A DNA stretch of 64,000 nt from an uncultured delta proteobacterium (GCA_963782055.1 CAWAIF010000003.1:6240001-6304000), one strand, 5' to 3'; shown: positions 2,402 through 25,445, numbered from the stretch's first letter. The notes: generated from the sequence alone by a model not told the origin. Translations and numbers: made by a program.

Positions 2402-2432
2402 TACGGCGCGTTAGGCGACCCTGAACCGCCGC

Positions 2433-2514: not shown

Positions 2515-2520
2515 ACCTGA

Positions 2521-2549: not shown

Positions 2550-2807
2550 GATCGAGTCGGCCGGTCGCGGAAGACGGTCACCGGCACCGGCGGTGATCGG
2601 TGTCTCCGTCCGTCCCTCATGAAAGACCAGCCATCTCGTTGTGCCGCCCCACACAGGACGGGAGCAGCATCGCTCGGGTCGTCACACGCTGGTCGATCGT
2701 CGGGGGTAGGGCACGCGGCGTCCCGGTGCATCGTGACCCGAGGGAGCTGGCGCCGAAGCGTCGCCAGCTCCTTCGGTACGTCGTGCAGCTTCAGAGAGCG
2801 CAGACGC

Positions 2808-4817: not shown

Positions 4818-4964
4818 CGCGCCCACGACGGTACCACGGCCCAGTCCCGCCGAGATCGCGGCCTCGTCGCGACGACGGTCACCTGGTAGCGCTCGGCCCG
4901 GCGCCGTGACCCTTTCATCGCTCGCCGTGTGCTTCTAGGATCCGTCCGTTGGAAGGAGGCATCG

Positions 4965-5696
4965 ATGGCCGATGCGGGACCGTGGGCTTCGGGCCCGGGC
5001 GAGATACTTCGTCACGCGCTGAAGTTGCTCAAGAAGGATTCGGACACGAACCGGCGGCTCGCCATGATCCTCATCGACAACGCCGTCGAGTTGACGCTCA
5101 AGACGTACCTGGGGCTCCCCGGTCGGGTCACCGGCATCAAGATCGGTCGGGACAAGTTTCGCGACATCAGTGAGAGCTTCCCGAAGCTCCTCGACGCGAT
5201 GGAGGAGCACGCGGACGAGAAGCTCGCCGGGATCGATCTGGGCCAAGTCGAGTGGTACCACCGCCTGCGGAACGAGCTGTACCACCAGGGGAACGGGCTG
5301 ACGGTCGAGCGGCAGAAGGTTGATGTCTACGCCGAGCTGGCGAAGCTTCTGTACATGAACCTGTTCGGGTCGGAGATTGAGGTCGAGGAGGACGAACAGA
5401 TGGAACTCCTCGGCGCCTTCATGCTGGGGTGGCAGCGTTCGGAGCGAGCACGTTTGGCCCTTGTCCCAGGGGAGCGCGGCACGAAGTCGGCGTTTGCCGC
5501 CGCAGCGATGCGCTTACGCTTCCCCGAAGTGGACGGCGCTGACGCGAAGCTCGTCGCGGACTTCAACGAGCTACGTCAGGTCCGCAATCAAGTCGTACAT
5601 GGGCAGGTGGAGCGGACCGCCGTCACCCGCGAACTCGTCGAACGCGTGAACGAGCTCGCCAAGAGGGTGGAGTCGTTGAAGCCACGAAGCGGTTGA
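4965..5696 (+). CDS. Protein with two HEPN-type RxxxxH motifs, putative RNase/defence effector
   Basis: DNAVELTLK helix, RNELYH and RNQVVH; RBS GGAGG before ATG 4965. Confidence 0.7.
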   Translation: MADAGPWASGPGEILRHALKLLKKDSDTNRRLAMILIDNAVELTLKTYLGLPGRVTGIKIGRDKFRDISESFPKLLDAMEEHADEKLAGIDLGQVEWYHRLRNELYHQGNGLTVERQKVDVYAELAKLLYMNLFGSEIEVEEDEQMELLGAFMLGWQRSERARLALVPGERGTKSAFAAAAMRLRFPEVDGADAKLVADFNELRQVRNQVVHGQVERTAVTRELVERVNELAKRVESLKPRSG

Positions 5697-5762
5697 CGAA
5701 GACCGCTCTTGCTCGACCGCGTTCGGGAACGCCTCGTAACACCCCTCAGGTAGGGGTCGCTC

Positions 5763-5785
5763 TTCACACGACCTTTCACACGACC
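5763..5785 (+). repeat. Tandem 11-bp direct repeat TTCACACGACC x2 (candidate integrase arm-type sites)
   Basis: Exact copies at 5763-5773 and 5775-5785, about 110 bp inside the att core. Confidence 0.6.
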
Positions 5786-5866
5786 TGATGGTCACGCCGA
5801 GCACTTCCCACTCCTTCCAGGTAACTCTGCGTCAAAGAGAATTCCCGACGAAAATGGGGTTTGCTC

Positions 5867-5893
5867 GGCACTTGCATGCAATATGCAAGTGCC
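5867..5893. repeat. 11-bp perfect inverted repeat abutting the att core
   Basis: GGCACTTGCAT-gcaat-ATGCAAGTGCC. Confidence 0.75.
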
Positions 5894-5935
5894 TTGACAC
5901 GGTAGGGGTCGTAGGTTCAATCCCTATCGCGCCTA
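5892..5935 (+). other. att site: 3' half of tRNA-Val(GAC)
   Basis: CC TTGACAC GGTAG GGGTC GTAGG TTCAATC CCTAT CGCGCCT A = anticodon loop to discriminator; no D arm or 5' acceptor strand upstream. Confidence 0.85.
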
Positions 5936-6123
5936 CAGAGATTCCGGCGAGTTAGCTTCCGGCCTCCGCGAGCGGGACGCTCGAACACCGGTACGTCGGC
6001 TCGGCGTAGTACGAGTCGCCCCCCGCGTCACACACCCGCCCACGCACGAGGCACCCCCCCACTGGCACGTTGTCGAGGCGGGTCGTGCGGGCCCACACTC
6101 GCCATTCGTGGAAGACTGTCGCC

Positions 6124-7566: not shown

Positions 7567-8904
7567 TCACGCCGGGACGGGGGTGGGCGATGGGCGAGGC
7601 TCCGCCGCCGCCTCCCGCCGGGCGTGCTCCCGGCGGATCAGCAGCGCGAAGGTCAGCCACCCGCAAGCGAGCACCACGTTGATGGTGGCAAAGAGGGAGG
7701 TGGACCAGCCGAGGTGGGTGCCGGTGTAGACGGCCAGCGCGCTGAGGATGGCGCCCACGCGCACCGCCACCGTGTCCACCGCCGTCTTGCCGACGAATTT
7801 CTCCGCGCGCGTCGCCATCAAGAAGAGGGCGTTGCGCGTCGTGTCCTGCAAGGAGTACTGCGTGCCGTTCTCCCCGATCTTGACGACGCGCAGCACGGCG
7901 AGGGTGGGCCGCACCGCCGCCGTCGCGTACGCCAAGAGGGAGAAGGCAGGCATGAAGAGCAGCGCCCCGCGCACCCCCACCAGAGCGAAGATGCGCGAGA
8001 CGGCGAAGAGCTGGAGCACCAACCCGACGAGGTTGTACCAGGCGAAGTAGTTCGCCTTGAAGGCGCCGACGAACTGCTGCTGCGCGGCGAGCGACCCGTG
8101 CGCGCTCGCCTTGGCCGCGACGATCAGCGAGCGGTCGAGCAGATACTCGCCGGAGCTGTTCACCCAGTTGAGCAGTATGACCAGGCCCGCGATGAGCAGC
8201 AGGTACCTGTCGCCCGCGATCAGGCGGAAGGCGCCCTGCGTCGCGAGCGGCTCGTCGGGGTGCGCCTTGTCCGTGCGGGGCGCGGCGGCCGCCGCCCGGC
8301 GCTCCACCGTGACGATGAGCGCGAGGCAGACGAGCAGGATCCCCACCGCGATGGCCATGATCATCGCGGGGCCGAGGGGGATGAGGGCCTGCGCGAAGCG
8401 GGCGCCCGCGACCGCGCCGATGGAGCTCCCCGCGCCGATGATGGGGAAGAGGCGCTTGCCTTGCTCGTCGGTGTAGATGTCGGCCGCGAGCGCCCAGAAC
8501 TGCGCGACGATGGTGTAGCTGAAGACGCCCACCCAGAAGAAGAAGGCGAGCCCGATCTCCACGTGCGCGCGCTGCAGGACGGCGAAGACGACGAGGTTGG
8601 AGACGAAGAAGAGAAAGACGATGGTGAGCAGGCGCATGCGGCCGACGCGCTTGGCGAGCTCGCCGTAGAAATGGACGAAGCCCGCCATGATGACCGCCTG
8701 CCCGGCGCGCGCGTACAGCTTCACCTCCGCCCCGCCCTGCAGCAGGATGAGCGGCTCGCGCACCGTCTTCAGCAGGTAGTACGCGGACAGGAGCAGGAAC
8801 GCGGCGAGCGTCATCACCGCGACGTTGACGGCCTCGTCCGGATGGACCTTGGTGAACGGACGCAGGAGGAGCGCGAGGGTGCGCTGGACCGGGGACGACT
8901 TCAC
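7567..8904 (-). CDS. Npt/TLC-family nucleotide transporter-like MFS protein
   Basis: YYLLKTVREPLIL, QFWALAADIY...GKRLFP, about 12 TM helices; start taken at GTG 8904. Confidence 0.8.
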   Translation of the reverse strand: MKSSPVQRTLALLLRPFTKVHPDEAVNVAVMTLAAFLLLSAYYLLKTVREPLILLQGGAEVKLYARAGQAVIMAGFVHFYGELAKRVGRMRLLTIVFLFFVSNLVVFAVLQRAHVEIGLAFFFWVGVFSYTIVAQFWALAADIYTDEQGKRLFPIIGAGSSIGAVAGARFAQALIPLGPAMIMAIAVGILLVCLALIVTVERRAAAAAPRTDKAHPDEPLATQGAFRLIAGDRYLLLIAGLVILLNWVNSSGEYLLDRSLIVAAKASAHGSLAAQQQFVGAFKANYFAWYNLVGLVLQLFAVSRIFALVGVRGALLFMPAFSLLAYATAAVRPTLAVLRVVKIGENGTQYSLQDTTRNALFLMATRAEKFVGKTAVDTVAVRVGAILSALAVYTGTHLGWSTSLFATINVVLACGWLTFALLIRREHARREAAAEPRPSPTPVPA

Positions 8905-9089
8905 CTGGTGACGGTATACACCGTCCGGCGGCTGTGGTGGAGCGCCCCGACAGCGACGGGACGCCACATCGGCGGGGACGGTGTCGGGCGCGGAGCAGGC
9001 CGCTCGCGGTACCCGATCTACTCCCCAGGGAGTAGATCGGCGGGCGGCTTGGTGACGGTGGGGGCCGCTGGTATGATCGACGGGTCCCT

Positions 9090-9713
9090 TTGTCCGACGC
9101 CCCCTCACCCCACTACCTGGTCGTGGAGGACGATTCGGTTCTGGCGCAAGCGCTCAGTCGGTTCTTGAGTACGACCGGGGGGGGAACCACCGTCGCCTCC
9201 ACCATCGCCGACGCCCTCGAGTTCATCGACGCGGGCGGCCCTCTCGCCGGCATGGTGCTGGACGTGGGCCTGCCCGACGGCTCGGGGCTGGAGCTGCTCG
9301 CCGCCGCGCGTGCGCGCGGTGTGCAGGTGCCGGCGCTGGTGCTCACGGGGTACCAGGACGAGGGGACGATCACCTCCGCGCAGCTCCACCGCGCCCAGTT
9401 CTTGCCGAAGCCCCCGCGCGAGGAGAACCTGCGCGCCTTCGTCGACGCGGCCATGACGTTTCGCAAGCTGACGCGTGTGCGCCTGCAGGAGACCGTCGAC
9501 GACTGGGCGATAAGCCACGGCTTTACTCCTCGCGAGAAGGAGATCATGCTCCTCGCATGCACGGGCTTCGCCCGCGGGGAGCTCGCCGAGCGCCTCGGCG
9601 TCGAGGAGACGACCATGAAGACGATGGTGCGGCGGCTGCTGCGCAAGTCCGGGCAGTTCACGCTGGGGGACCTCGCCGCGAAGGTCCACCGTGCCCTCTT
9701 CGAGCATGAGTGA
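9090..9713 (+). CDS. Response regulator (REC + LuxR HTH)
   Basis: LVVEDD, LDVGLPDG, LTG, PKP; C-terminal FTPREKEI...LGVEETT. Confidence 0.9.
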   Translation: MSDAPSPHYLVVEDDSVLAQALSRFLSTTGGGTTVASTIADALEFIDAGGPLAGMVLDVGLPDGSGLELLAAARARGVQVPALVLTGYQDEGTITSAQLHRAQFLPKPPREENLRAFVDAAMTFRKLTRVRLQETVDDWAISHGFTPREKEIMLLACTGFARGELAERLGVEETTMKTMVRRLLRKSGQFTLGDLAAKVHRALFEHE

Positions 9714-11352
9714 CGCGGGGGAGCTGAGCCTGCGCATCCTCGGGGGCCTCGCACGGTACGTCGAGGACTTCCACGGCCGGGAGGCGCTCGTGGAGGTTCT
9801 GGAGGGCACGGGGGTCGGGCGGGACGACCTCGACCAGGGGCGCTGGGCGACGCTCGCGCAGGTCGAGGCGGTGCTCGCGCGTGCTCGCCCCCGCTTCCCG
9901 GACGACGCCTCCTTCACCCGCGCCTTCGGCTACCGCCTCGCCGACTCCCTCGGGCCGATGCGCATGCTGGCGTGGGCGACCTCGCCGGCGCAGCTCTTCG
10001 CCAAGGGGTTCGAGTCGATCGACACCCTCTCCAACATCAGCCACGCGGAGCTCGCGTCGGTGGCGCGCAGCTACGTGGACGTGCGCTACTGGAGCGACAT
10101 GCCGGAGAGCCGGCTCTTGTGTCTCTCGCGGCAAGGGCAAGTGGGCGCGCTCACCACGCTGGTGGGGCTGCCGCCGGCGACGTTCGAGGAGAGCGCGTGC
10201 GTGGCGCGCGGCGACGAGGAGTGCCTGTATCGCATCCGATGGGTGGAGGGGCGGCACCGCTGGTGGACGCCTGTCGGGCTCGCCGGCGGGTGCGCGGTCG
10301 CCGCGCTCGCCGCCCACGCGAGCACGGCGCTGCTGCCGTGGCTGACGTTACCGCTCCTCGGCGGGCTGGCGGGCCACGCGATCGCCCGGCGGCGGGTGCT
10401 CCGGCGTCACCTGGAGTTCGAGCGGCAGGCCACGCACGCCCTCGCCGAGCTCGCCCGCGTGGAGGCCGAGGCCCGGCGCGAGCTCGTCGGCCTGCACGAG
10501 CGGCAGCAGCAGTGGAGCCGGCACCTGGAGAAGGAGCTCGCCGAGCAGCGGGCGGCGCAGCAGCTCACGATGCGGGGCGTCTCGCACGACCTGCGCAACC
10601 CGCTCGCCGCCCTGGAGATGCTCTCGTGGCAGATGAAGAGCGCCCTCGAAGGCAACGACGACGACGTCGAGGGGCTGATGGACGACTTCGGCGCGGCGCT
10701 CGCGCAGCTCAAGCGGCTGGTCAACGAGCTGGTGCAGGGGGCGCAAGCGTCGCCCCCGGCGCGGCGGGGCTCGCGGGTCGAGGTGAGCAAGCTTCCGGAG
10801 CGGCTTCGGCGGCGCCTCGGCGCGCTGGTCTACGGCAAGGACATCGCCGTCTCGGTGCGCCTCGCGGAGAGCGCGCCGGAGGCCATCACCATCGCCCCGC
10901 TCCTGCTGGACAGGGTGCTGGACAACCTCTTCACCAACGCCGCCAAGTACACCGAGCACGGCCGCATCGTGCTGGAGGTCGGCGGAGACGAGCGCGGGCT
11001 GGTGCTCCGCCTCTCCGACACCGGCCGCGGCATCGAGCCGGAGCGGCTGCGCGAGATCTTCGACTCGCCGGGCACCGCCCCACACGACGCCGAGGGCAAG
11101 AGCTTCGGCATCGGGCTGTCCGTCGTGGTGCAGCTCCTCGCCCAGATCGGCGGCAAGCTGGAGGTGGCCTCGCGCCCTGGCGAGGGCACGACCTTCTGGG
11201 TGCACCTGCCGCCGGAGTCCGGCTGGGACGCCGCCGGTCCCGGGCCGGTCACCGAGGACGTGGTGCGCGACGTCGTTCACGTACGCACGCCCTCGTCGCA
11301 CCCGCTCGCGCGGCGAGAGTCCATCGCGCCTAGACCCGGCCTCGATACCTGA
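9706..11352 (+). CDS. Sensor histidine kinase with N-terminal V4R/H-NOX-like domain and 2 TM helices
   Basis: SHDLRNPL, NLFTNAAKYT, DTGRGI, GIGL; N-domain ends FEESACVARGDEECLYRIRW; overlaps regulator stop (ATGAGTGA). Confidence 0.9.
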   Translation: MSDAGELSLRILGGLARYVEDFHGREALVEVLEGTGVGRDDLDQGRWATLAQVEAVLARARPRFPDDASFTRAFGYRLADSLGPMRMLAWATSPAQLFAKGFESIDTLSNISHAELASVARSYVDVRYWSDMPESRLLCLSRQGQVGALTTLVGLPPATFEESACVARGDEECLYRIRWVEGRHRWWTPVGLAGGCAVAALAAHASTALLPWLTLPLLGGLAGHAIARRRVLRRHLEFERQATHALAELARVEAEARRELVGLHERQQQWSRHLEKELAEQRAAQQLTMRGVSHDLRNPLAALEMLSWQMKSALEGNDDDVEGLMDDFGAALAQLKRLVNELVQGAQASPPARRGSRVEVSKLPERLRRRLGALVYGKDIAVSVRLAESAPEAITIAPLLLDRVLDNLFTNAAKYTEHGRIVLEVGGDERGLVLRLSDTGRGIEPERLREIFDSPGTAPHDAEGKSFGIGLSVVVQLLAQIGGKLEVASRPGEGTTFWVHLPPESGWDAAGPGPVTEDVVRDVVHVRTPSSHPLARRESIAPRPGLDT

Positions 11353-11782
11353 CGACGCGAATGCTCTTGCCGCGCGGCAGGACCACGTGCTCGAAGGTGT
11401 GGGTCATCCGGAGCACCGCGCCGAGGCCCGACCCGAGGCCGTCGCGCCGCACGAGCACGTCGGGCGCGATGGGACCCCGGTCGTCGTGGCCGTCGCGCAG
11501 GGCCATCGGGAGGTCCCGGATGGGCGGGCCGGCGTCGGCGGCGACGACCTCCAGGCCCACCCCCCGCGTCTCCTCCACCAGCCGCAGCCGGAGCTCGCCC
11601 CCGCCCGCGTGCTTGACGAGGTTGGACGCGAGCTCCATCACCACGATGCCGACCTCTTCCTGCGCCACGCGGTCGAAGCCGGCGGACGCCGCCAGGTTGC
11701 GCGCCAGGCGACTGGCGAAGTACGCGTCGGTGCGGTCGCGGACGGCGACGCTCGAGGCGTCCCGCGTGGAGACGGCGGTCAT
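11330..11782 (-). CDS. Second RsbT-like anti-sigma/serine kinase (HATPase)
   Basis: MELASNLVKHAGGG, DAGPPI, GLGSGL; ATG overlaps the rsbR stop. Confidence 0.8.
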   Translation of the reverse strand: MTAVSTRDASSVAVRDRTDAYFASRLARNLAASAGFDRVAQEEVGIVVMELASNLVKHAGGGELRLRLVEETRGVGLEVVAADAGPPIRDLPMALRDGHDDRGPIAPDVLVRRDGLGSGLGAVLRMTHTFEHVVLPRGKSIRVVRYRGRV

Positions 11783-12408
11783 TCGGGCCGCGGCTTGCGG
11801 ACGTACCGCCGGTTGACCCACTGCCGCAGGCCATCGCGCAGGCTCCGGTGCGTGCGCACGCCGTGCAGCTCGACGCCGATGTGGACGACGGTCTGGGCAA
11901 TCCCGGGGTTGATGCCGGTGAGCACGCAGTGCGCGCCCAGCAGCCGCACCGCCTTGGCCATTCGCAGGAAGTGGTCGGCGGTGCGCGTGTCCATCGCCTC
12001 GATGCCGGTGATGTCGATGATCGCGCACTCCGCGCCCTTCGCGACGATGGCCTGCAGCAACGACTCGGTCATCTCGGCGCTGCGGTGCGAGTCCATGACG
12101 CCCACCACCGGGAGGCACAGCACCCCGTCCCACACCTCCATGATGGGGGTGGAGAGCTCGCGGATGGCCTCCCGCTGCCGCTCGATCATCGCCAGCTTCT
12201 CCTCCAGCTCCGCCTGGTAGGCGCTGGATTGCCGGTGGGCCTGCTCCAGCGAGCCGACCATCTCGTTGATGGCGACGCGCAGGGCGCCGAAGGGGTCCGT
12301 CTCGGGGAGGTTCTGTGTTTCCAACCTCACGGTGTAGTCGCCCGCGCCGACGTCGGCGAGGGTGAGCAGGATGTCGGCGATGCGTTCGGAGACGTCAATC
12401 TCGCTCAT
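11779..12408 (-). CDS. rsbR: RsbR-like STAS protein with HAMP-like N-terminus
   Basis: IRELSTPI...LPVVGVMDSHR...IIDITGI..MDT..AVRLLGA..LTGINP. Confidence 0.85.
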   Translation of the reverse strand: MSEIDVSERIADILLTLADVGAGDYTVRLETQNLPETDPFGALRVAINEMVGSLEQAHRQSSAYQAELEEKLAMIERQREAIRELSTPIMEVWDGVLCLPVVGVMDSHRSAEMTESLLQAIVAKGAECAIIDITGIEAMDTRTADHFLRMAKAVRLLGAHCVLTGINPGIAQTVVHIGVELHGVRTHRSLRDGLRQWVNRRYVRKPRPE

Positions 12409-12421
12409 GACCCTTGCCTCC

Positions 12422-12997
12422 TCACGACCACTGCACGCCGAAGCGAAAGGCGCCGCCGCCGGGCTCGGTCTCGAGTGGCTCGTAGCGGACGTCGACGCCG
12501 CCGCATCCCATGGCCTCGAAGACGCCCTCGATCCACCCGGCCGAGACCGGGGCCACGTGCTCGAAGCCGTCGACGCCGCGCATGATCATGGTGGCCCGCT
12601 TCTCCTTGAAGCCGGCGGGGTCCACCTCGAAGGTGCCGAAGGAGAACATGCGGGGCCAGATGTCCGGCACCTTCTTCAAGAACACCGGCGGTGTCATCAC
12701 CTTGAGCAGGAGCCGCATGAAGGTGCCGGTCGCCGCGTCGGAGAGGTGGCGGCCCAGCGCGCGCGAGGTGCGCTCCGCCTCGTCGTCGGCGGGCGCGACG
12801 CTCGCCATGGCCCGCAAGAACGCCACCAGGTCCCCGATCGGGTACCAGTTGCCCGTGCGCACGCGCGGGAGCTTGTCGCGCACGTCCCGGGGGAGCTGCT
12901 CGATGATCCGGTCGCGCACCTGCGCCGAGTAGTGGGTGTCGATGAAGGTGATCGTCTGCTCCAGGTTGAAGCCCTTCGTCAGCCTGTCGTCGCTCAT
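12422..12997 (-). CDS. Myxobacterial V4R/H-NOX-like protein (TIGR02265/DUF2378-like)
   Basis: TKG...WYPIGDL...DIWPRMFSFG...AGWIEGVFE...FGVQW pattern; ATG 12997 overlaps the rsbS stop. Confidence 0.6.
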   Translation of the reverse strand: MSDDRLTKGFNLEQTITFIDTHYSAQVRDRIIEQLPRDVRDKLPRVRTGNWYPIGDLVAFLRAMASVAPADDEAERTSRALGRHLSDAATGTFMRLLLKVMTPPVFLKKVPDIWPRMFSFGTFEVDPAGFKEKRATMIMRGVDGFEHVAPVSAGWIEGVFEAMGCGGVDVRYEPLETEPGGGAFRFGVQWS

Positions 12998-13464
12998 CGC
13001 CGCTCCGCTCCTTCCTCGTGGTCGTGGTGGTCCTCGTCGCCGAAGAGCGCGTCGTCGAAGGCGTCGTCGTCGCCGAAGGTCGCGCCCTCGTCGTCGTCCT
13101 CGCGCCACTCCCTGCGCACGCCGAGCAGCTCGAGCGCCGCCTCCAGCGATCGCGCGGAGTCGACGTGCGGCATCTCGATGCCCATCGTCTGGACGGTCAT
13201 CGCCGCCTCCGGGCTCATGCCGGAGAAGACGGTGCGCGTGCCCATCAGCGCGACCGCGGTGGCGAGGCGCGAGAGCGTCGCGCAGAGGTGGCTGTCGATC
13301 ATCCACGCGCCGGTCAGGTCGATCACCAGCGCGCGGATGCCGCCGTGGTGCACGCGCATGAGCACCTCGTCGCAGAGCGTGCCGGCCATGGCGTCGTCCA
13401 CCTCGCCCTGGATGGCCACCAGCAGGATGTTCCAGAAGCTCAGGATGGGGATGCGTTCGGTCAT
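12994..13464 (-). CDS. rsbS: RsbS-like STAS protein with acidic/His-rich tail
   Basis: RIPIL...LLVAIQGEVDD...IDLTGAWMIDS...LMG..TVFSGMSPEAAMT. Confidence 0.85.
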   Translation of the reverse strand: MTERIPILSFWNILLVAIQGEVDDAMAGTLCDEVLMRVHHGGIRALVIDLTGAWMIDSHLCATLSRLATAVALMGTRTVFSGMSPEAAMTVQTMGIEMPHVDSARSLEAALELLGVRREWREDDDEGATFGDDDAFDDALFGDEDHHDHEEGAERR

Positions 13465-14036
13465 GGGTCCTCCGTGAGGTCGGCCACGAGGATCGCGGCG
13501 TCGTCGTGAGGGTGGGAGCACGCGCCCAGCACGTGCTCGCACGCCCCTTCGGCGTCCAGCGCGCCGAGGTCGGACGGCGAGAGGCGTGTCGCCACCACGC
13601 CGTCGGTGAAGAGCATCAGGCGCCCGCGCGGGAGCAGGCGGCCCTCGAACACCTTGAACGCGCGCACCTGCGCGCCCAGGATCCCCGGGCTGAGCACCGA
13701 GGGCACCTGCCGTGGGTGGGAGCGCAGCTCGACGTTCCCGACGCCGCACCCGCGGACGGCGCCGTCCTCCACGATGCACGCCATGGCCGCGGCGCCGCGC
13801 GAGCCGCGCAGGGCGTCGTGCATCGCGCGGACGACGAGCAGCGGCCCGCGGTCGAGCGCCGCCTCCGCGGCCACCCGCGCGGCGAGCGACGCCACCTCCG
13901 CCGCCTCCGGCCCGTGACCGAGCGCGTCGATGACGCAGAGCAAGGTGTGCGGCCCCTCCCCGCGCACGACGACCCTGTCGCCGCACTCGCGCTCGCCGCG
14001 GCGTGGTCGGGCGCGGTGGGCCACGACGAGCCTCAT
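13461..14036 (-). CDS. rsbX: RsbX-like PP2C/SpoIIE phosphatase
   Basis: GERECGD, IDALGHG, GVGNV, FTDG, DDA. Confidence 0.85.
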   Translation of the reverse strand: MRLVVAHRARPRRGERECGDRVVVRGEGPHTLLCVIDALGHGPEAAEVASLAARVAAEAALDRGPLLVVRAMHDALRGSRGAAAMACIVEDGAVRGCGVGNVELRSHPRQVPSVLSPGILGAQVRAFKVFEGRLLPRGRLMLFTDGVVATRLSPSDLGALDAEGACEHVLGACSHPHDDAAILVADLTEDP

Positions 14037-14656
14037 ACCGACATCTCCACTTCCACCGTCGTGCCGCGGGCGCCGCTGTCGATGGCGAAGTGCCGGGCCA
14101 GTCGCTTGGTGCCGAGCAGGCCCAGGCCCAGGCCGGTCTTGCTGCGGTAGCGGCCGGACATGATCTCGTCCAGGTTGTCGATGCCGCCGCCGCGGTCGGT
14201 GGCGACGACGCGCACCACGCGCGCCTGCCCGCTCTTCGGCCCGAGGTCGATCGCGCCGCCGGGCGTGTAGAGCGCGATGTTGCGCGCCAGCTCGGCGACG
14301 ACGGTCGCGACGCGCTGGATGACGAAGCTGCGCGCGCCGAGCTCCTCGCACAGGGCCACCGCGGCCTGCCGGGCGAGGAGCACGTCGTGCTCGACGGACA
14401 CCGGTACGCGCCGTGCCTTCGGCGTCGCGGCGGTGCCGACCGAGAGCAGCTCGGTGCGCAGGCGTCGTGGGTCCACGTTGCCGAAGAGGCGCAGGCCGTG
14501 CTGCAGGTCGGAGAGCAGCGCCGGCACGTCGGTCGACTTGAGGCTCGTCGCCGTCAGACCGCGACGGCGCAGGGCGCTCTGCAGCACGCTCTCGGCGTTG
14601 AGCCGCGACACGTGCCGACCGAGTACGGCAACCACTCTGGCGTAGGGGGTGTCCAC
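14033..14656 (-). CDS. rsbT: RsbT-like serine kinase with N-terminal extension
   Basis: ELARNIALY, DRGGGI, YRSKTGLGLGLLGTKRL; C-terminal part of the 1373-aa track ORF; start GTG 14656 inferred. Confidence 0.8.
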   Translation of the reverse strand: MDTPYARVVAVLGRHVSRLNAESVLQSALRRRGLTATSLKSTDVPALLSDLQHGLRLFGNVDPRRLRTELLSVGTAATPKARRVPVSVEHDVLLARQAAVALCEELGARSFVIQRVATVVAELARNIALYTPGGAIDLGPKSGQARVVRVVATDRGGGIDNLDEIMSGRYRSKTGLGLGLLGTKRLARHFAIDSGARGTTVEVEMSV

Positions 14657-14667
14657 CGGGAGGCCCG

Positions 14668-15750
14668 TCAGTCGACGCCCTCGGGGTCGGGGCCGAGCGC
14701 CGGCTCGTTCCAGCGCATGACGACGGCGGCAGCCGAGGAGGCGCTCCCAATCGACTGCAGCAGGACGAGATCGCCCCGGCGGAGCCTGCCCTTGCGGGCT
14801 GCGTAGTGCAGGTTCCCCGGCATGAGCGCCGGGCCGGTGTTGGCGTAGAAGCGATTGGTGCACACCGTCTTCGCCGGGTCCACCTCCAGCGCCCGCGCGG
14901 CGAAGCGCGCGAACCAGGGCACCGGCGTGTGGAAGACGAAGAGCGCGATGTCGGAGAGGGAGACGCCCGCCGCGCGCGCTGCGCCCTCGCAGACCTCCCG
15001 CACGTAGCGCGTGGCGGTCTCGGCGAGCACGCGCCCCGTCTTCGGGGAGGCGACCATGTGCACCCACGGGGCGCCATCGACGTTCTCCAGCTCGAAGGAG
15101 AAGGTGCCGCAGGTGTCCGACGAGTGAGTCGCGTGGCCGCCGAGGTAGCCGAGCCCCTCCTCGACGGGCGAGACGACGAAGGCGCCCGCGCCGTCCCCGA
15201 GGAACCACGCCAGGGAGTCGCTGCCGTGGACGAAGCGCGAGTAGGTACACGACGCGACGACCAGCACGTTCTGGTGCTCGCCGGCGGCCACGAGACCGCA
15301 CGCGGTCTTCAGCCCGACGACCGACCCCGAGCAGGCCGTCTCCATGCTCCAGGCCGCGCACCGCGCGCCGAGCGCGCCCGCCACGCGCGGCGCGTTGCCC
15401 ACGCCGATCTGGTCGGGCAGGAAGGAGGCCACCACGATGAGGTCCACGTCCGCCGCGCTCATCCCGGCGGCGGCGAGGGCGTCGGCGGCGGCCCGCGTCT
15501 CCAGCGTGAGCGCGCTCTCCCCGGACCCGAGCACCCGCCGCTCGATCGAGCCCCGGAAGGCGTCGCGCAGGTAGGGCTGCATCTCCTCCTCGAAGAGGTT
15601 GCGGGGCGGCTCGCCGGTGCGCGCCCAGAGCCGCGCGAGCGCCGTCTTCTCCGCGGCGGCGACGACGTCGGGGTACAGCGCGCGAAAGTGCCCGTTGTCG
15701 CGGACGACGCCGGGGAAGGCCACCGCGAGCGAGCGAATGCCGACCGAATC
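14668..15750 (-). CDS. KAS III (FabH-like) protein, furanolide synthase CybF-like
   Basis: Cys (ETACSGS), His (FVFHTP), Asn (ANTGP), GDGAGA; N-terminus SVGIRSLAVAFP; true start unresolved (first in-frame GTG 15723, see findings). Confidence 0.8.
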   Translation of the reverse strand, partial: DSVGIRSLAVAFPGVVRDNGHFRALYPDVVAAAEKTALARLWARTGEPPRNLFEEEMQPYLRDAFRGSIERRVLGSGESALTLETRAAADALAAAGMSAADVDLIVVASFLPDQIGVGNAPRVAGALGARCAAWSMETACSGSVVGLKTACGLVAAGEHQNVLVVASCTYSRFVHGSDSLAWFLGDGAGAFVVSPVEEGLGYLGGHATHSSDTCGTFSFELENVDGAPWVHMVASPKTGRVLAETATRYVREVCEGAARAAGVSLSDIALFVFHTPVPWFARFAARALEVDPAKTVCTNRFYANTGPALMPGNLHYAARKGRLRRGDLVLLQSIGSASSAAAVVMRWNEPALGPDPEGVD

Positions 15751-17511
15751 TCATCGCCCTCCTCCGACGCCCTGGCCGAGCAGGCTGGCGTTTCGCTTGC
15801 GCGCGGGCGCCGCCTCCGCGGGGTCCACGTCCACGTCCACCACCACCGGCCCTGACTCGTGCATCGCCTCGCGCAGGGCGTCGTCCAGGTCGGACTCGCG
15901 CGTGACGCGCAGGCCGCGCGCGCCCATCGCCTCGGCCAGGCGCCCGAAGTCGGTCGGGGGGATGGCGGTGGCGAAGGGGGCGTAGCCCACCGACTCCATG
16001 CCCTGGCGGATCATCCCGTACTGGCTGTCGTTGAGGACGACCCACATCGCGCGGGCGCCGTGGTGCACGGCGGTGCTGATCTCGCTGTTCATGAGCATCG
16101 CGCCGTCGCCGAGCAAGGCCACCGCCTTGCGGCCGGTGGCGAGCGCCGCGCCCACGACGCCCGTGGCCGCGTGACCCATCGAGCCGAAGCCGAGGCTGGT
16201 GCGGTAGCCGCCGCGGCGGTCGAAGCGAAGCCAGTGCGTGGCCCAGGCGAAGGCGTTGCCCGCCTCCGACATCAGCACCGCGTCGCTCGCGTCGACCACC
16301 TGCCGCTGCAAGGCCGCCATCAGCGCCTGCGGGCGGACACGCCCCTCCGCCCGCAGCGCGGGCGCCGCCGGGAAGGGCGCGGTGCGAGGCGCCGCCGCGG
16401 AGGAGCGCAGGGACGGGCCACGATCCATGAGGGCCTCCAGGAAGAGGGCGACGTCCGACTCCAGCGCGAGGGTGGGGCCGTCGGGGTACGCCGCACCGAA
16501 GACCCCCGGGTCGATGTCGACGTGCAGCAGCCCCTTGGACGGGAGCAGGCGCTCGTCCCAGAGCGACGTCATCTCGCCGAGTCGCGTGCCGAGCACCAGC
16601 ACGTACTCCGGGCGACGAGCGGCGAAGTACTCGTCCACCGTGGCGTGACCGCCGAACCCACTGACGCCGAGATATTGCGGATGCGACTCGGGAAAGACGC
16701 CCTTGCCGCGCGGCGACGCCATGACCGGCGCGCCGGTGCGCTCGGCGAAGCGGCGCAGGACCGGCCCCGCCCCGCGCGCGCCGAAGCCCGCCCATACGAC
16801 GAACGATGAGCCCGCGAGCAGCTGCAGCACCACGTCCAGCGCGGTGGCGCCGCAGGTGACGTGACCGAGCGACTCCGGCGCGCGAAGCACCGCGTCGGGC
16901 GCGGGGGCCGACTGGAGCGACACCGGGAGCTGCAGGTGCGCCACGTACGGCCCGGCGCGCCGGAGGCCGCGCAGCACCCGGTTGGCGACGACGGCGAAGG
17001 AGGCCGGGTCGTCCAGGAGCAGCGACTCGTCGAACATGCCGCCGCCCGGGAAGACGCCGGAGTGCGTCACGGGGCACGCGCCGGTCTCCTGGAAGGCCCA
17101 CCTGCCGCGCTGAGCCGCCGACGTGGCCGCGGAGACGAGCAGCACCTTCGCCCCCTCCCAGCGCGCGGCGGCAAGGCCGGTGAGCGCGTTGGTCACGCCG
17201 GGCCCTGTCGTGGCGAAGACGAGCCCCGGACGCCCGGAGGCGAAGTAGGCCTCCGTCGCCGCGAAGGCCGCCCCCGCCTCGTGGCGGCAGTGCACGACCT
17301 CGATCGTGCTCTCGTGAAGGGCGCGAGCGAGCGGGGCGATGGCGCCACCAATCAGACCGTACGCGTGCGTGATGCCCGCGCCCGCGAGCATGCCGACGAG
17401 CGCCTCGGCGACCGTCGGCGCGAGCCGCGGGTCGCGCGTCGCGGGGCGAATGCGTGACTCCGAGGTCGCGGCCACGCCGCTCGACTTGGAGACCGGAAGG
17501 GGGGATCCCAT
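15751..17511 (-). CDS. TPP-dependent enzyme, ScyA/CybE-like acyloin synthase
   Basis: HCRHEAGAAFAA, TTGPGVTNA, GDGAMLMNSE...NDS; no adjacent IlvH/IlvC, directly followed by KAS III. Confidence 0.85.
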   Translation of the reverse strand: MGSPLPVSKSSGVAATSESRIRPATRDPRLAPTVAEALVGMLAGAGITHAYGLIGGAIAPLARALHESTIEVVHCRHEAGAAFAATEAYFASGRPGLVFATTGPGVTNALTGLAAARWEGAKVLLVSAATSAAQRGRWAFQETGACPVTHSGVFPGGGMFDESLLLDDPASFAVVANRVLRGLRRAGPYVAHLQLPVSLQSAPAPDAVLRAPESLGHVTCGATALDVVLQLLAGSSFVVWAGFGARGAGPVLRRFAERTGAPVMASPRGKGVFPESHPQYLGVSGFGGHATVDEYFAARRPEYVLVLGTRLGEMTSLWDERLLPSKGLLHVDIDPGVFGAAYPDGPTLALESDVALFLEALMDRGPSLRSSAAAPRTAPFPAAPALRAEGRVRPQALMAALQRQVVDASDAVLMSEAGNAFAWATHWLRFDRRGGYRTSLGFGSMGHAATGVVGAALATGRKAVALLGDGAMLMNSEISTAVHHGARAMWVVLNDSQYGMIRQGMESVGYAPFATAIPPTDFGRLAEAMGARGLRVTRESDLDDALREAMHESGPVVVDVDVDPAEAAPARKRNASLLGQGVGGGR

Positions 17512-17526
17512 GGGGACGCGCACGGT

Positions 17527-18591
17527 CTACGGGTCGCCGTCGTCGTCGTCGCAGTGCGAGACGCTGCAGACGTGGGGGAGCGGCGGACGCCCGGCGTCCC
17601 AGAAGGCGAGCGCGCTCGTCCAGAGCTCGTCGCGCCCGGGCTCGAGGAGCAGCGCGTGGCCGCCGCCGGCGATGACGTGGAGCTGCACCGGCCCGCCGTA
17701 GTCCGACTGGAACGCGGTGACGTCCTGGGGCGGGGTGACGGGGTCGGCGGTCCCCCAGAACTGCAGCGCGGGCGCGCGGCCGTCGTGGGCGTCGAAGGGC
17801 GGCAGGTCGAAGCCCTCCAGCGTGGGACCGGTCGCGTAGGAGCCCACCAGGTTCTGGCCGACCCAGTCCACCGCGGGGGCCTCGGCGCTGGAGAGGAGCG
17901 GCGCGTAGGCGTCGGGCGTGGTCTGGATGTAGCCGTTCGGCGCGCTCTCGAGGAAGGCGAGGAACTCCGGGGTGAAGAACACCGACTGGAAGAAGGGCGT
18001 GACCGACTTGTAGACGTTGGACGCGACCACGATGCGGCCGATGTGGTCGGGATCCGTGGAGGACTCGGTGCCGCCGAGGGCGATCGCCAGCGAGGCGCCG
18101 AGGCTCATGCCGAAGACGTCCACCTTGTCGACGTGGTGGGTGCGGCGGATCCACTCCACCAGGGTGCCCAGGTCGCCGAGGAGGCGCTGCTTGGTCACCG
18201 TGCTGCCGTCGGCCGGGCGGGTGCTCAGGCCGTAGCCCTCGTAGCTCGGGGCGAAGACGAAGTAGCCGTCCTTCGCGATGCGATCCATCGCGTCGTAGCT
18301 GGGATCGCCGTCGACGTGGGCGTCATAGATGGCGTTGGTGGCGAGCGTGGGGGGGAGCAGCAGCACCGCGCGCCGGGACGAGGCGACGAGAGAGGCGGTG
18401 GTGTAGCGCTCCAGGACGTGGAGCCTCACGTCGTGCGAGATGCGGACGAAGTGCTGCTTGGCGACGAGATGGTCGCACGACTGCGTGCCGAACTCGGACG
18501 CCTGCTGAGCGACGGCGTCGGGCCCAGCGCCGGCCGAGCAGCCGGCGACGAAGGAAGCGGCGACAAGGACTCCCAACCACGGACACCTCAT
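17527..18591 (-). CDS. Alpha/beta hydrolase lipoprotein
   Basis: Lipobox VAGC, nucleophile GMSLG, GTADP and GGGH; RBS GGAGG before ATG 18591. Confidence 0.8.
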   Translation of the reverse strand: MRCPWLGVLVAASFVAGCSAGAGPDAVAQQASEFGTQSCDHLVAKQHFVRISHDVRLHVLERYTTASLVASSRRAVLLLPPTLATNAIYDAHVDGDPSYDAMDRIAKDGYFVFAPSYEGYGLSTRPADGSTVTKQRLLGDLGTLVEWIRRTHHVDKVDVFGMSLGASLAIALGGTESSTDPDHIGRIVVASNVYKSVTPFFQSVFFTPEFLAFLESAPNGYIQTTPDAYAPLLSSAEAPAVDWVGQNLVGSYATGPTLEGFDLPPFDAHDGRAPALQFWGTADPVTPPQDVTAFQSDYGGPVQLHVIAGGGHALLLEPGRDELWTSALAFWDAGRPPLPHVCSVSHCDDDDGDP

Positions 18592-18643
18592 GAGGACCTC
18601 CACGGTGCGCGCGTGTCGGACGACGCGATTGTCGTCCGCGGGC

Positions 18644-18671
18644 ATAGAGCCACCTCGCCACGATAAGTTCC
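18644..18671 (-). promoter_or_regulatory. Candidate ECF (RpoE-type) promoter for the hydrolase-TPP-KASIII-rsb run
   Basis: GGAACTT-N16-TCTAT; 8-bp inverted repeat CGGACGAC/GTCGTCCG (18617-18638) in the leader. Confidence 0.45.
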
Positions 18672-18845
18672 GCTCGGCTCCCGCGGAATCATCCCTGTGG
18701 GATGACAGCGCTCAGGAGAAGCGGGCGCGTGGCTCGAGCCCGAGGAACGCGCTGTAGCGGGCGGCGGCGCCGCGCACTGCGTCCTTCGCCTCGCGTGAGA
18801 GGCGACCGAAGGGCTCGACGTCGATCGTCAATCGCGCTCGTTCAT

Positions 18846-19346
18846 CTAGAAGCGAACGATCGGCCGCTGATCGATCGCGGCGATGGTGCCGGCCACGTCG
18901 TCGGGCGTGACGACGATGGGGAGCGAGCCGTCGTTGCGACGGATGATCACCGCCTGGCCGCAGCGCGTGGAGTACAGGCGAAAGCGGCCGAGCTTGTCGC
19001 TCGCGAAGAGGCCGTAGCTGCCGAAGAAGCCGCCCACGCCGAGGACACGCACCCGGCGACGGCCGAGCTCGCTCACCGGGGCGGCGCTCTCCACCGAGGA
19101 GAGGGCCACGCGCAGCGGCCGCCAGGCGCGGCGCTCGATGCGGAGCTCCGCGCCCTCCACGACCAGGGCGCTGGGCCCCATCATCCAGGAGAGCGCGAGG
19201 GCGCCCAGCACCAGCGCGATGACCGGGAGGCGGCCATCATGCGGGAGGAAGACGGCGGCGAGCACGAGGGTGACGACCACCAGGAGCGACGAGAGCACCG
19301 TGAAGTTGGCGTGAGCACGATCCAGGGAAAACGCCGTGCGGAACAT
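18846..19346 (-). CDS. Bacterial PH-domain membrane protein
   Basis: 2 TM helices then RVLGVGGFFGSYGLF...IVVTPDD. Confidence 0.75.
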   Translation of the reverse strand: MFRTAFSLDRAHANFTVLSSLLVVVTLVLAAVFLPHDGRLPVIALVLGALALSWMMGPSALVVEGAELRIERRAWRPLRVALSSVESAAPVSELGRRRVRVLGVGGFFGSYGLFASDKLGRFRLYSTRCGQAVIIRRNDGSLPIVVTPDDVAGTIAAIDQRPIVRF

Positions 19347-19419
19347 GCAGCTCAACCTAAGACCGCCCCCACCGGCGGCAACGAGTATCGGCACCCGCGG
19401 CGTCCGATTCTGGGGCCCG

Positions 19420-20544
19420 TCACCCCGGCAGCTTGGTGGCGGTCGCCGCCGTTTCGGCGCGCGGCGCCGGCTTGGGCGTCTTCGCCGTGCTCTTCGGCAA
19501 GGTGGGGGCCTTCGTCACGTCGGCCGGCGGCTCCGCCGTCATGCTGCCGAGGAAGGCGACGATGGACCGCGCCTGCTTGGCGCTGATGTTCTTCCCGAGC
19601 TGGTACTCGGCCATCATCATCACTGTCTGCTCCAGACTCTTCTGCGACCCGTCGTGCAGGTAGGGGCCGGTGTCGGTGATGTTGCGGAGCATCGCCACCT
19701 TGAACTTGCCCTTGTCCGCATCCTGCTTGGTGACGCCGTAGAGGCCCTCGTCCTTCAGGTTCGGCCACGGCTTGATCAGGCCGAGCTTCTGCACCATCGA
19801 GCCGCCCACGCCCGGCCCCTGGTGGCAGGTCTCGCATCCGGTGTCGAGGAAGGTGGCGAGGCCGGCCGTCTGCGTGTCGGTGAGGGCGGACTGGTCGCCC
19901 TCGAGGTACTTGTCCCAGGAGGACCGGTAGAGCAGCGTGCGCAGGAAGGCGCCGAGCGCCTTGGCGGTGTTGTCCAGGGTGACCGGCTTGGCCTCCCCGG
20001 GGAACGCCTTCTTGAAGTCGGCGACGTACTCGGGCATCGAGGTGAGCACCGCGTCGAGGCGCTTGTCGTCGGTGTCCATCACCGCGGGGTCCTTGAGCAC
20101 CATGCCGACGGCCTGCTCCACGGTATCGGCGCGCGCGTCCCAGAACTGCTTGGTCTGCACCGAGCCGTCGACGAGCGGCGGCGTGTTGCGGCCGAGGACC
20201 TTACCCCCCTGCCCCTTCGACAGGGCGAGCCCGTCGGTGCCGGCGTGGTCCAGGTGGTGGCAGCTGTTGCAGGAGAGGCTTTGCCCGCGGGAGATGCGCG
20301 CGTCGAAGAAGAGCATCTTGCCCAGGTTCACCTTGTCCGGTGTCCCGGGGTTCTCGGGCGACTCGTTCTTCGCGGGCAGCGCCTTGAAGAGCGCGAGCAT
20401 CGCCGTGTTGACGACGGGGGCCTTCGCCGTGGGCGCGGCGGCCTCCTGCACGACCTTCTGTGGCGTCGGCTTCTCCTGGCACGAAGAGGAGACGGCGGCG
20501 AGGGTCGCGACGACGGCGGTGGCGAGCAGCGTCCGGATGTCCAT
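19420..20544 (-). CDS. Diheme cytochrome c peroxidase (lipoprotein)
   Basis: LGKMLFFDARIS, CNSCH, QFWDARA, CETCH, TGPYLHDGS. Confidence 0.92.
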   Translation of the reverse strand: MDIRTLLATAVVATLAAVSSSCQEKPTPQKVVQEAAAPTAKAPVVNTAMLALFKALPAKNESPENPGTPDKVNLGKMLFFDARISRGQSLSCNSCHHLDHAGTDGLALSKGQGGKVLGRNTPPLVDGSVQTKQFWDARADTVEQAVGMVLKDPAVMDTDDKRLDAVLTSMPEYVADFKKAFPGEAKPVTLDNTAKALGAFLRTLLYRSSWDKYLEGDQSALTDTQTAGLATFLDTGCETCHQGPGVGGSMVQKLGLIKPWPNLKDEGLYGVTKQDADKGKFKVAMLRNITDTGPYLHDGSQKSLEQTVMMMAEYQLGKNISAKQARSIVAFLGSMTAEPPADVTKAPTLPKSTAKTPKPAPRAETAATATKLPG

Positions 20545-23053: not shown

Positions 23054-24415
23054 ATGTTTGCATCTCGTCGACATCTCTCCACGGAGCGCGCTCAGACCCT
23101 CAGTCGGGCCGGAGACTTGCTCCTGATCTGGGGGGCCGCGTGGCTCGCGGCGCGGGTCGAGGGGCCTCTCGGCATCCTGTCCTTTGGCCTCGCCGCCACG
23201 CTCCTCTGGCTGCTCGCCGCCAGGGTGATCCGGCAGTACGACGCGACCAACGGGCGCGGCTTCGTCGGCGACCTGGTGCTCACCCTGGTCATGGTGATCA
23301 CGGTCTCCGGAGTCCTCTTCGCCGCCAGCATCCTCCTCGGCCACGCGGAGGTCGAGCGGTTCGCCGCGGTGTGGGTCCCCTCGGTCCTCGTCGCCCGGGC
23401 GATCGTCATCGGCCCGCGGCTGCGGGCGGCGCGGCCGGTCGACGCGGTGCTCGTCGTGGGCGTCGGCCCGCTCGGCCGGGTGACGGGCAAGGAGATCGCC
23501 GAGAGCGGCCGGAGTGTCCTCGGCTATCTCCGCTTCGAGGACGAGGAGCCCCACGCGCACCTGCGCGCGACGGTGCTGGGGACGGCGGGGCACCTGGAGA
23601 ACGTCCTCAAGGAGCGCGTCGTCGACGAGGTGTACCTCGCCGCCACGGCGGACGAGCACGCTGCGGCGGTACAGGACTCCATCCGCACTTGCGAGCGCTT
23701 CGGCACCCCCTTCGCCCTGCCCGCCTTCGCGTACCGCCTCACCCGCGCCCGGCCTGTGGGTCCGCTCGGGCATGGCGACGGGTACGCGCACTTCCTCAGC
23801 GTGCGGCAGAAGCCGCTGCAGCTCTGGCTCAAGCGGTTCTTCGACCTCGTCGCCTCCGGCGGGGCGCTGGCGCTCCTCTCGCCCCTCCTCGTCGGCGTCG
23901 CCGTGGCGGTGAAGGTGACCTCACGCGGGCCCGTCTTCTTCCGTCAGGAGCGCGTCGGCCTCCATGGCCGCACCTTCTACATGCTCAAGTACCGCTCGAT
24001 GGTGGCCGACGCCGAGGCGCAGAAGGCCAAGCTGCTGGCGCACAACGAGCAGGCCGGCCCGGTCTTCAAGATGAAGCGCGACCCGCGCGTGACCGCGGTC
24101 GGCCGCTTCATCCGCAAGTTCAGCATCGACGAGCTCCCGCAGCTGGTGAACGTGCTGCGCGGCGACATGTCGATCGTCGGGCCGCGCCCGCCCCTCCCGA
24201 GCGAGGTGCGCCGCTACCAGGCCTGGCAGCGCCGGCGCCTCTCCGTCCGCCCCGGCCTCACGTGCGTCTGGCAGGTGAGCGGCCGCAACGAGATTTCTTT
24301 CGAAGAGTGGATGCTTCTCGACATGCGCTACATCGACCACTGGAGCCTCGCTCAGGACTTCAACCTCATCCTGCGCACGGTGCCGGTCGTGTTGACGGGC
24401 CGCGGTGCGAGTTGA
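23054..24415 (+). CDS. Polyprenyl glycosylphosphotransferase (WcaJ/EpsZ-like priming transferase)
   Basis: 4+1 [49 protein letters not shown]. Confidence 0.95.
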
Positions 24416-24429
24416 GGAAAGGAGATCCG

Positions 24430-24837
24430 ATGAAGAACCGAGTGGCGCTCGTCGTGGAGGACGACCCGATCCTCCAGCGGGCGATGACCAACCGCCTGGG
24501 GAGGATGGGCTTCGACGCGCTCGGGGCCCTTCATTACGACGCCGCGCTCCTACGGCTCGCCGAGCGGCGTCCGCACCTCGTGTGCGTCAACCTGGAGCTC
24601 CCCACCGAGTCCGGGTACGAGGTGTGCGAGTACATCCGGCGCGACGCGAGGCTCGCGCGCGTGCCCATCATCGTGACCAGTGAGTCCGGCTACCCGGAGG
24701 CCATGGCGAGCGCGGAGAGGGCCGGCGCCAACGCCTTCCTCAAGAAACCCTTCACGATGGCGGCCCTCGTCGCCTACGTGGAGGCGCTCGTCCACGGACA
24801 CGAGAGCGAACCGCATCTGAGGAGGCTCTGGCCATGA
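24430..24837 (+). CDS. Single-domain receiver protein with Asn at the phospho-acceptor position
   Basis: LVVEDD...HLVCVNLELP...KKPF; RBS AAGGAG. Confidence 0.85.
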   Translation: MKNRVALVVEDDPILQRAMTNRLGRMGFDALGALHYDAALLRLAERRPHLVCVNLELPTESGYEVCEYIRRDARLARVPIIVTSESGYPEAMASAERAGANAFLKKPFTMAALVAYVEALVHGHESEPHLRRLWP

Positions 24838-25439: not shown

Positions 25440-25445
25440 GGTGTC

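Follow-up and report, generated by a model that had tools for sequence, protein, structure and literature searches.

A conserved myxobacterial cassette joining a ScyA/CybE- and CybF-like enzyme pair to an Rsb module and a V4R-type kinase: a candidate signal circuit

We analysed a 64,000-nucleotide stretch of DNA from an uncultured delta proteobacterium (GCA_963782055.1, CAWAIF010000003.1; hereafter the window), which corresponds to positions 6240001-6304000 of contig C3 in a genome of 7.58 Mb and 72% GC. The original prediction described a run of nine co-oriented, overlapping or nearly abutting minus-strand genes at 11330..18671 that encode, in this order, a hydrolase lipoprotein, a thiamine pyrophosphate (TPP, or thiamine diphosphate, ThDP) enzyme, a ketoacyl synthase III (KAS III), RsbT, RsbX, RsbS, a V4R-like protein, RsbR and a second RsbT (RsbT2), and proposed that the enzyme pair makes a small diffusible butenolide that is sensed by the stressosome encoded beside it. 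The nine genes are confirmed as named, in the same orientation and tightly packed: five junctions overlap by 4 nt and the remaining three are gaps of 3, 11 and 13 nt. A scan of 8900-19500 for terminator-like sites gave none on the minus strand, its only two matches being on the plus strand and at the level of shuffled sequence, and a sigma-70 promoter scan of the locus gave no match. As had been predicted, genes for an ammonia lyase, a CoA ligase or tailoring enzymes are missing from the Pfam domain annotation of the run. Outside the run lie two plus-strand genes, for a response regulator and a histidine kinase, that the original prediction did not include. The same nine-gene order together with regulator and kinase recurs in six other loci (L015, L016, L017, L018, L069 and L072; 46-92% identity) and the run is for that reason beyond chance. 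The eleven genes are a conserved myxobacterial cassette (Table 1).

Table 1. Features of the cassette, with positions counted from the first nucleotide of the window.
Feature	Position	Strand	Basis
REC + LuxR/GerE-type helix-turn-helix response regulator, candidate operator binder	9090..9713	+	PF00072 + PF00196
Histidine kinase, N-terminal V4R/H-NOX-fold sensor + hydrophobic stretch	9706..11352	+	HisKA + HATPase_c
Second RsbT/RsbW-like kinase (rsbT2)	11330..11782	-	HATPase_c_2
RsbR, HAMP-like N-terminus	11779..12408	-	STAS; Vibrio RsbR 7o0i E 2e-28
Free-standing H-NOX/V4R-fold protein, 191 residues, candidate small-molecule sensor	12422..12997	-	fold model
RsbS	12994..13464	-	6jhk RsbS E 3e-20; Ser of 'IDS' aligned, kept
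RsbX-type PP2C phosphatase	13461..14036	-	SpoIIE PF07228; 3zt9 E 1e-14, RsbX 3w40 E 1e-4
RsbT-type kinase, ~80-residue N-terminal extension	14033..14656	-	HATPase_c at residues 114-205
CybF-like KAS III	14668..15754	-	PF08545/PF08541; one additional base after codon 2 in assembly
ScyA/CybE-like ThDP enzyme, predicted acyloin-type carboligase	15751..17523	-	NF035927, ScyA model scores
Alpha/beta serine hydrolase, predicted exported lipoprotein	17527..18591	-	PF00561/PF12146; lipobox VAGC
Palindromic putative operator, 19 bp	18687..18705	.	7-bp arms, 3-bp spacer; upstream of hydrolase
Second palindrome, similar core, weak	9019..9034	.	upstream of regulator gene; background 0.013 per kb

The TPP enzyme scores 696 bits against NF035927 and 665 bits against the ScyA model NF035923 compared with 207 bits against the IlvB model TIGR00118, both of the higher scores being under their curated cut-offs (1000 and 1020, respectively). 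Its nearest solved relative is BbmA (E 7e-74), with acetohydroxyacid synthase (AHAS) at E 1e-41, and it is 49% identical to the TPP enzyme of a Rivularia pair. The TPP tree places it in a clade with the enzymes of cyanobacterial TPP-KAS pairs with a support of 100, outside of which fall the AHAS-like paralogues of its own genome. Similarly, the KAS III tree contains a well-supported clade of the window enzyme with stand-alone cyanobacterial TPP-KAS pairs that excludes the genome's own FabH-like paralogues. The catalytic residues Cys140, His274 and Asn304 are invariant across 24 close sequences. The IQ-TREE runs on KAS and TPP used 36 and 38 of ~80 rows. In agreement with the original prediction, profile scores and both trees thus set the two enzymes apart from housekeeping IlvB and FabH. 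They are 43-50% identical to cyanobacterial TPP-KAS pairs, which is similar in size to the 44% and 39% given for a Plesiocystis pair against CybE and CybF in the PMC8777810 supplement. The label CybE/CybF-like is accordingly a family-level one, drawn from profile scores and level of identity, as the trees held only unnamed cyanobacterial pairs. In three other loci (L040, L042 and L043) a ScyA-like TPP enzyme is partnered with a citrate-synthase-like open reading frame (ORF) with no KAS III in the pair. The hydrolase ORF is open from 18645, with the lipobox located downstream of the ATG at 18591, and the G-x-S-x-G, GxxDPxT and GGH motifs are retained among hydrolase homologues.

For KAS III, the predicted gene, family and catalytic triad stand, but the reading frame from ATG 15754 is broken. 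One additional base near 15749-15750, after KAS codon 2, is missing from 5/5 aligned homologous junctions and puts this ATG out of frame; as assembled, the intact KAS frame begins at GTG 15723. The frame that opens at ATG 15754 extends for 574 codons and ends inside rsbT (14033-15754, minus strand), which is probably an artefact of the indel. The ratio of nonsynonymous to synonymous changes (pN/pS) in the KAS gene versus L015 is 0.25, below the 0.35 of the upstream TPP and hydrolase genes, indicating that the remainder of the gene is free of decay. A small-scale frameshift count gave 62 full-length matches against 1 split pair, so that the assembly is largely clean, but a HutH-like gene at C3:3702842-3704279 is split, like KAS, by a one-base frameshift. 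The additional base may be either a sequencing or assembly error or a very recent lesion, with a sporadic assembly error being plausible. Since the base is absent from all five homologous junctions, we reject the idea of a programmed frameshift or read-through between TPP and KAS.

By the gene criterion of RsbR, RsbS, RsbT and RsbX occurring together with their phospho-positions kept, the downstream part of the run encodes a stressosome module. The two RsbR phospho-positions are retained as Ser and Thr in the alignment to 7o0i, with site names taken in part from PMC9237108. The original wording, in which the stressosome itself senses the product, is not supported as it stands. RsbR has ~80 residues ahead of its STAS domain, with a HAMP match of E 5e-4 that falls under the cut-off, and no globin, PAS or other recognised sensor domain was found on it. 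In the alignment, most other loci have a longer N-terminus of sensor type, and the lack of an obvious pocket is the main objection to sensing by the stressosome. At the same time rsbR is the most conserved gene of the cassette (pN/pS 0.11). The N-terminal extension of RsbT is common to enzyme-linked loci plus a few unlinked loci; a solved-structure sequence search with this RsbT gave no match. An extended-RsbT Rsb module is also found convergent with a class I terpene synthase (L121:9157-13272), which suggests that this type of Rsb module pairs with other small-molecule synthases.

The relationship of the predicted V4R-like protein to V4R domains is retained, and we now read it as an H-NOX fold without the heme ligand. 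Its model (pLDDT, the predicted local confidence, of 95) was built from a 144-row alignment after discarding a poor single-sequence fold (pLDDT 53), and it matches H-NOX with a TM score of 0.72 and a Z score of 16.6 (root-mean-square deviation of 2.6 over 171 residues), as well as DmpR/PoxR with a Z score of 8.9. No conserved His occurs in residues 100-116 among the 144 relatives, 130 of which have Trp114, YxSxR is present in just 4/144, and the HNOB profile matches 5/144, the window protein not among them. A proximal His and YxSxR form the heme motifs of H-NOX proteins. With no conserved helix His and no YxSxR, heme binding by the window protein is unlikely. About seven H-NOX-fold genes are present in the genome. 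Small relatives of the protein border the hydrolase-TPP-KAS runs of L031 and L032, and L128, which lacks the enzymes, has two H-NOX-fold copies just ahead of its HAMP-RsbR, so that the H-NOX-fold protein is tied to both halves of the cassette.

The sensor domain of the kinase is homologous to the free H-NOX-fold protein (96.5% probability). Its residues C139, E162, C165 and C173 are invariant in 7 rows, and their spacing (C-x22-E-x2-C-x7-C) matches that of the zinc site C155/E178/C181/C189 of MopR (PMC10598577); the motif is present in 17 of 18 strong kinase-sensor rows. A search of 401 genomes gave 15 strong matches (E<1e-30) to this kinase-sensor subfamily, in 14 genomes. A TPP enzyme lies within ~5 kb of 15/15 of these strong matches and of 0/9 among the best nine of 25 weaker matches. 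Solved-structure sequence searches with the kinase sensor and the V4R family gave no match. Collectively, the V4R kinase and the free H-NOX-fold protein are likelier receptors than RsbR. A V4R/H-NOX kinase also occurs with an AHAS-like TPP enzyme and two ORFs that faintly resemble citrate synthase in the same genome (C3:6698306-6703247) and in L068 and L148-L158. This kinase-plus-TPP-enzyme module is widespread in Myxococcota and was not found in the literature searched. In L016, a second TPP-KAS pair comes after the V4R/H-NOX kinase, in place of the other genes of the AHAS-like module.

The response regulator adjoins the cassette in L015-L018, L069, L070 and L072. Placement of the regulator-kinase pair relative to the enzymes differs among loci, being convergent in the window, L015 and L069, co-oriented downstream in L017, L018 and L072, and divergent upstream in L016, with the regulator of L070 placed likewise. 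Upstream of the hydrolase gene is a palindrome that is present in the window and in 7/7 close loci holding that DNA, within surrounding sequence that cannot be aligned. It is the sole strong site in the whole genome, at 28.5 bits with the next site at 16.7 bits (0.01 expected per window), and in L016 and L070 the regulator and hydrolase genes diverge from either side of it. Where the arms carry mismatches, in L016, L018 and L072, these are uncompensated, which is more suggestive of a protein site than of an RNA hairpin. A palindrome with the same TCCC..GGGA core is also located between the divergent arms of 9/9 distant loci described below. A feedback loop would be expected to show just this, a single nearby site and a linked regulator, with the regulator as the putative binder. 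The second, weak palindrome has no counterpart at the matching position in L015 or L069.

How far do these genes keep company elsewhere? KAS is at least 67% identical in ten loci, seven of which run on into rsbT, six with the full nine genes plus regulator and kinase. In the remaining three (L070, L081 and L115) KAS leads straight to the H-NOX-fold gene, on contigs that stop 0.5-1.7 kb further on. Two pairs of these close loci are near-copies (L015/L069 and L070/L081). A second order is found in nine distinct loci of another family (L101, L102, L105 and L173-L179, with L177 repeating L101), in which rsbT2-rsbT1-rsbX-rsbS-rsbR is divergent from tpp-kas-methyltransferase-hydrolase, with a LuxR-type regulator next in several. 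A third order occurs once, in a third family (L168, a 4-kb contig), where the hydrolase is co-oriented ahead of rsbT2-rsbT1-rsbS-rsbR. Gene order has thus changed while the partners stayed together, and the linkage to rsb genes is, as predicted, not confined to one genome. Of the 29 pairs flanked by 3 kb or more on each side, 12 have hydrolase and rsb, 3 have the hydrolase only, 14 have neither and 0 have rsb without the hydrolase, a count in which 7 pairs were chosen via the hydrolase, kin are not independent and four close loci with short flanks were left out. Since these 14 pairs lack both hydrolase and rsb, and a bare Plesiocystis pair is known, the minimality of the pair that the original prediction stressed is not special. 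We discounted a hydrolase-tree test (p 3e-11), as contigs ending early had been labelled as having no rsb.

Several other gene types adjoin TPP-KAS pairs. STAS/SpoIIAA-like proteins of ~150 aa without a Pfam match lie beside many pairs (L029, L031, L032, L033, L050, L073, L101, L102, L105, L114, L169, L171 and L173-L180) and are a possible second class of ligand-binding partner. Cyanobacterial stand-alone pairs are often near NB-ARC/WD40 or TPR proteins (L019, L090, L103, L111, L141 and L142), and AraC regulators are near stand-alone pairs in L094 and L095. In a separate lineage (L036-L038, L075, L079, L084, L086 and L088) two luciferase-like monooxygenases precede the pair, which is usually followed by a convergent hybrid kinase. 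Elsewhere in the window, positions 1-6000 have a GC content of 63-68%, below the rest of the window, with an ATPase-like ORF at ~4002-4817 and an ORF at 4929-5696 without a Pfam match; this region is possibly a foreign or defence island. Plus-strand genes at 23054-26627, judged from their translations alone, are of exopolysaccharide type (sugar transferase, export protein) together with a receiver-domain gene.

Based on these linkages, we propose that the cassette encodes a signal circuit that regulates itself and whose product is sensed by V4R/H-NOX folds and not by RsbR itself, a proposal to which we give about an even chance. Directly observed are the genes with their motifs and folds, the shared synteny and the conserved operator; the circuit is a reading of these observations. 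By kinship with ScyA and CybE, the TPP enzyme would join two 2-oxo acids; by analogy with CybF, KAS III would then acylate and cyclise this product using an enoyl-CoA of general metabolism. The result would likely be an acyloin derivative that is small and diffusible, probably a butenolide. Judging from gene linkage, the zinc-site V4R domain of the kinase may bind this product, and the regulator may bind the palindrome and thereby exert feedback on the operon. A second output would go through the Rsb module: in the least certain step, the HAMP stub of RsbR would receive the signal from the free H-NOX-fold protein, and RsbT and RsbX would switch RsbR/RsbS phosphorylation. The exported hydrolase may clear or mature the signal. 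Measured against the quorum-like circuit of the original prediction, a synthase, a candidate receptor, a regulator and a local operator are present at the level of linkage, with regulator and operator contributing the feedback element, whereas sensing by the stressosome is not supported as worded. The earlier interpretation is therefore partly supported, and the kinase/LuxR-type regulator pair, the association of kinase and TPP enzyme, the operator and the RsbR stub with its H-NOX-fold neighbour go beyond it.

A number of observations weigh against the proposed circuit. Known V4R domains (MopR and DmpR) sense outside aromatics, and most TPP enzymes near the other 14 kinases fall in another subfamily, one that is AHAS-like (2 tested). 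Regarding the chemistry, the KAS gene is frameshifted in the present assembly, and KAS relatives at 35-42% identity also occur in nonribosomal peptide or polyketide synthase (NRPS/PKS) clusters without a TPP gene. The only PF00221 gene of the genome is the HutH-like one, 2.5 Mb from the cassette, and it looks histidine-specific; it has the Ser-His pair of histidine lyases. CybF requires an unsaturated acyl-CoA (PMC12395478, PMC13288894), and the substrates tried in PMC12395478 were all cinnamate analogues. Nostoclides do not autoinduce, although they also offer a precedent in favour of the circuit, as chemical mediators in Nostoc that regulate other gene clusters (PMC9324945). Most rsb loci have no enzyme pair and most enzyme pairs have no rsb; the TPP-KAS pair was found in 0/20 fetched rsbT loci (out of 28 places outside G000 and G040), among them L122 and L128, whose HAMP-RsbR is 67% identical, which means that this HAMP-RsbR type of Rsb module works without the enzymes. 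The nine distant loci, finally, come largely from one genus, to which the seven genomes L173-L179 belong, and 7 of the loci were chosen via the hydrolase.

In a rival explanation, the cassette is a regulated secondary-metabolite operon, in which the kinase and Rsb module respond to stress or to cues from outside by turning on a defensive furanolide that is not itself sensed, and the hydrolase tailors the furanolide or protects its producer. Furanolides are antibacterial or cytotoxic (PMC12395478 and PMC8777810), the same Rsb type occurs without the pair, once by the terpene synthase of L121, and many other pairs adjoin unrelated regulators (NB-ARC/WD40, AraC, hybrid kinases). However, the rsb genes lie inside the enzyme operon, which would have them co-induced with the enzymes and not upstream of them, the kinase subfamily tracks TPP enzymes in all 15 cases, as fits a product receptor, and the cassette is without transporter or tailoring genes. 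We regard this explanation as unlikely, albeit one to be taken seriously. We consider it improbable that the cassette serves uptake and conversion of an outside compound, with the hydrolase freeing an aromatic acid or lactone, V4R sensing it and the TPP and KAS enzymes converting it: the TPP enzyme matches biosynthetic ScyA-type carboligases with far higher scores than catabolic families, and genes for a CoA ligase, transporter or oxygenase are missing from the cassette, even though the hydrolase is first in the run and exported, the kinase has a MopR-type zinc site, and the genome shows no recognisable phenylalanine/tyrosine lyase.

The tree tests bear on whether the two halves are coupled at all. 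Monophyly of enzyme-linked RsbR is rejected by the approximately unbiased (AU) test (p=1.4e-5), whereas one clade of rsb-linked KAS (p 0.23) or TPP (p 0.33) is not, and the single-clade test for RsbT is borderline (p 0.067). This pattern would follow from two recruitments, or else from a single old link that was later lost in places, and an independent origin of the two rsb-linked groups cannot be demonstrated from the KAS or TPP trees. The results for KAS, TPP and RsbT count against the circuit and leave room for hitch-hiking, that is, for a synthase-hydrolase-two-component unit and an Rsb unit that were joined once and have been co-inherited with product and Rsb uncoupled. Both units also occur alone, and L070, L081 and L115 have the H-NOX-fold gene, not rsbT, right after KAS. 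Yet three gene orders, the rejected RsbR monophyly, strong purifying selection on rsbR and the lack of any rsb-linked pair without a hydrolase among the 29 well-flanked pairs all speak against it, and we hold hitch-hiking to be equally improbable. More improbable still is the strict form of the original prediction, namely direct butenolide binding by the stressosome RsbR. RsbR is indeed the most conserved cassette protein, N-terminus included (72-86% in close loci), but that N-terminus is a HAMP-like stub without globin or PAS, and near-identical RsbRs exist without the enzymes.

Synthases paired with their receptors are exemplified by CqsA/CqsS and LqsA/LqsS/LqsR, which use alpha-hydroxyketones, and by the gamma-butyrolactone systems of Streptomyces. 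The cassette resembles these in having a synthase by a kinase and regulator, a local operator and acyloin or lactone chemistry, and differs in its ThDP and KAS III enzymes, its V4R/H-NOX receptor fold and the added partner-switching module. With H-NOX sensors and MopR/DmpR/PoxR it shares the fold and, in the kinase, the zinc-site spacing; unlike them, the free H-NOX-fold protein has no proximal His, YxSxR or zinc cysteines, and the V4R domain is fused to a histidine kinase as opposed to the sigma-54 activator of MopR, DmpR and PoxR. The cyanobacterin, nostoclide and maculalactone clusters (cyb, ncl and mac) likewise have an adjacent ScyA-type ThDP enzyme and KAS III with a Cys-His-Asn triad. 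Compared with the cyb cluster, the cassette has no CybB ammonia lyase and no CybC ligase and instead has a lipoprotein hydrolase and eight signalling genes. Stand-alone cybE-cybF of Plesiocystis and Enhygromyxa (deoxyenhygrolides, PMC8777810) are similarly minimal myxobacterial pairs with the rest of the cyb operon missing; the part of that source available to us mentions no link to rsb, kinase or operator, and the gene-product link there is unproven. Stressosomes of Bacillus, Listeria and Vibrio (the latter in PMC9237108) share RsbT, RsbX and the STAS phospho-positions of RsbR and RsbS, and the Vibrio locus, like the cassette, has associated two-component genes. The cassette departs from them in its order T-X-S-[H-NOX fold]-R-T2, the RsbR stub lacking a globin, the RsbT extension, the absence of RsbU/V/W or a sigma gene inside, and the co-located biosynthetic enzymes. 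In the sections seen, PMC9237108 and PMC2887360 describe Gram-negative and myxobacterial rsb modules with no such enzyme link, and no description of an enzyme pair combined with a stressosome was found in the literature searched, outside of which fall most subscription journals. The parts are known; the combination appears to be new.

In a broader reading, which we think unlikely, the cassette would represent an unrecognised myxobacterial autoinducer family in which products of ThDP enzymes, either butenolides or acyloins, are sensed by H-NOX/V4R folds that lack heme. A separable H-NOX-fold subunit would dock on a HAMP-RsbR without a sensor of its own to give the first stressosome driven by a chemical signal that the cell itself makes, and the sister kinase family, found by TPP enzymes in 15/15 cases, would read related signals across the phylum. 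The inputs known for stressosomes are light (YtvA) and oxygen (the Vibrio globin), with others not known, according to the part of PMC9237108 consulted. The cassette supplies candidates for the source of a ligand and for two receptor domains, together with a regulator and an operator of 19 bp. Each of these is small and can be expressed in a laboratory host, which opens the question of stressosome input to direct test. A function is thereby also suggested for furanolide-type pairs that are orphans, as well as for the DUF2378/V4R-like group of uncharacterised myxobacterial proteins.

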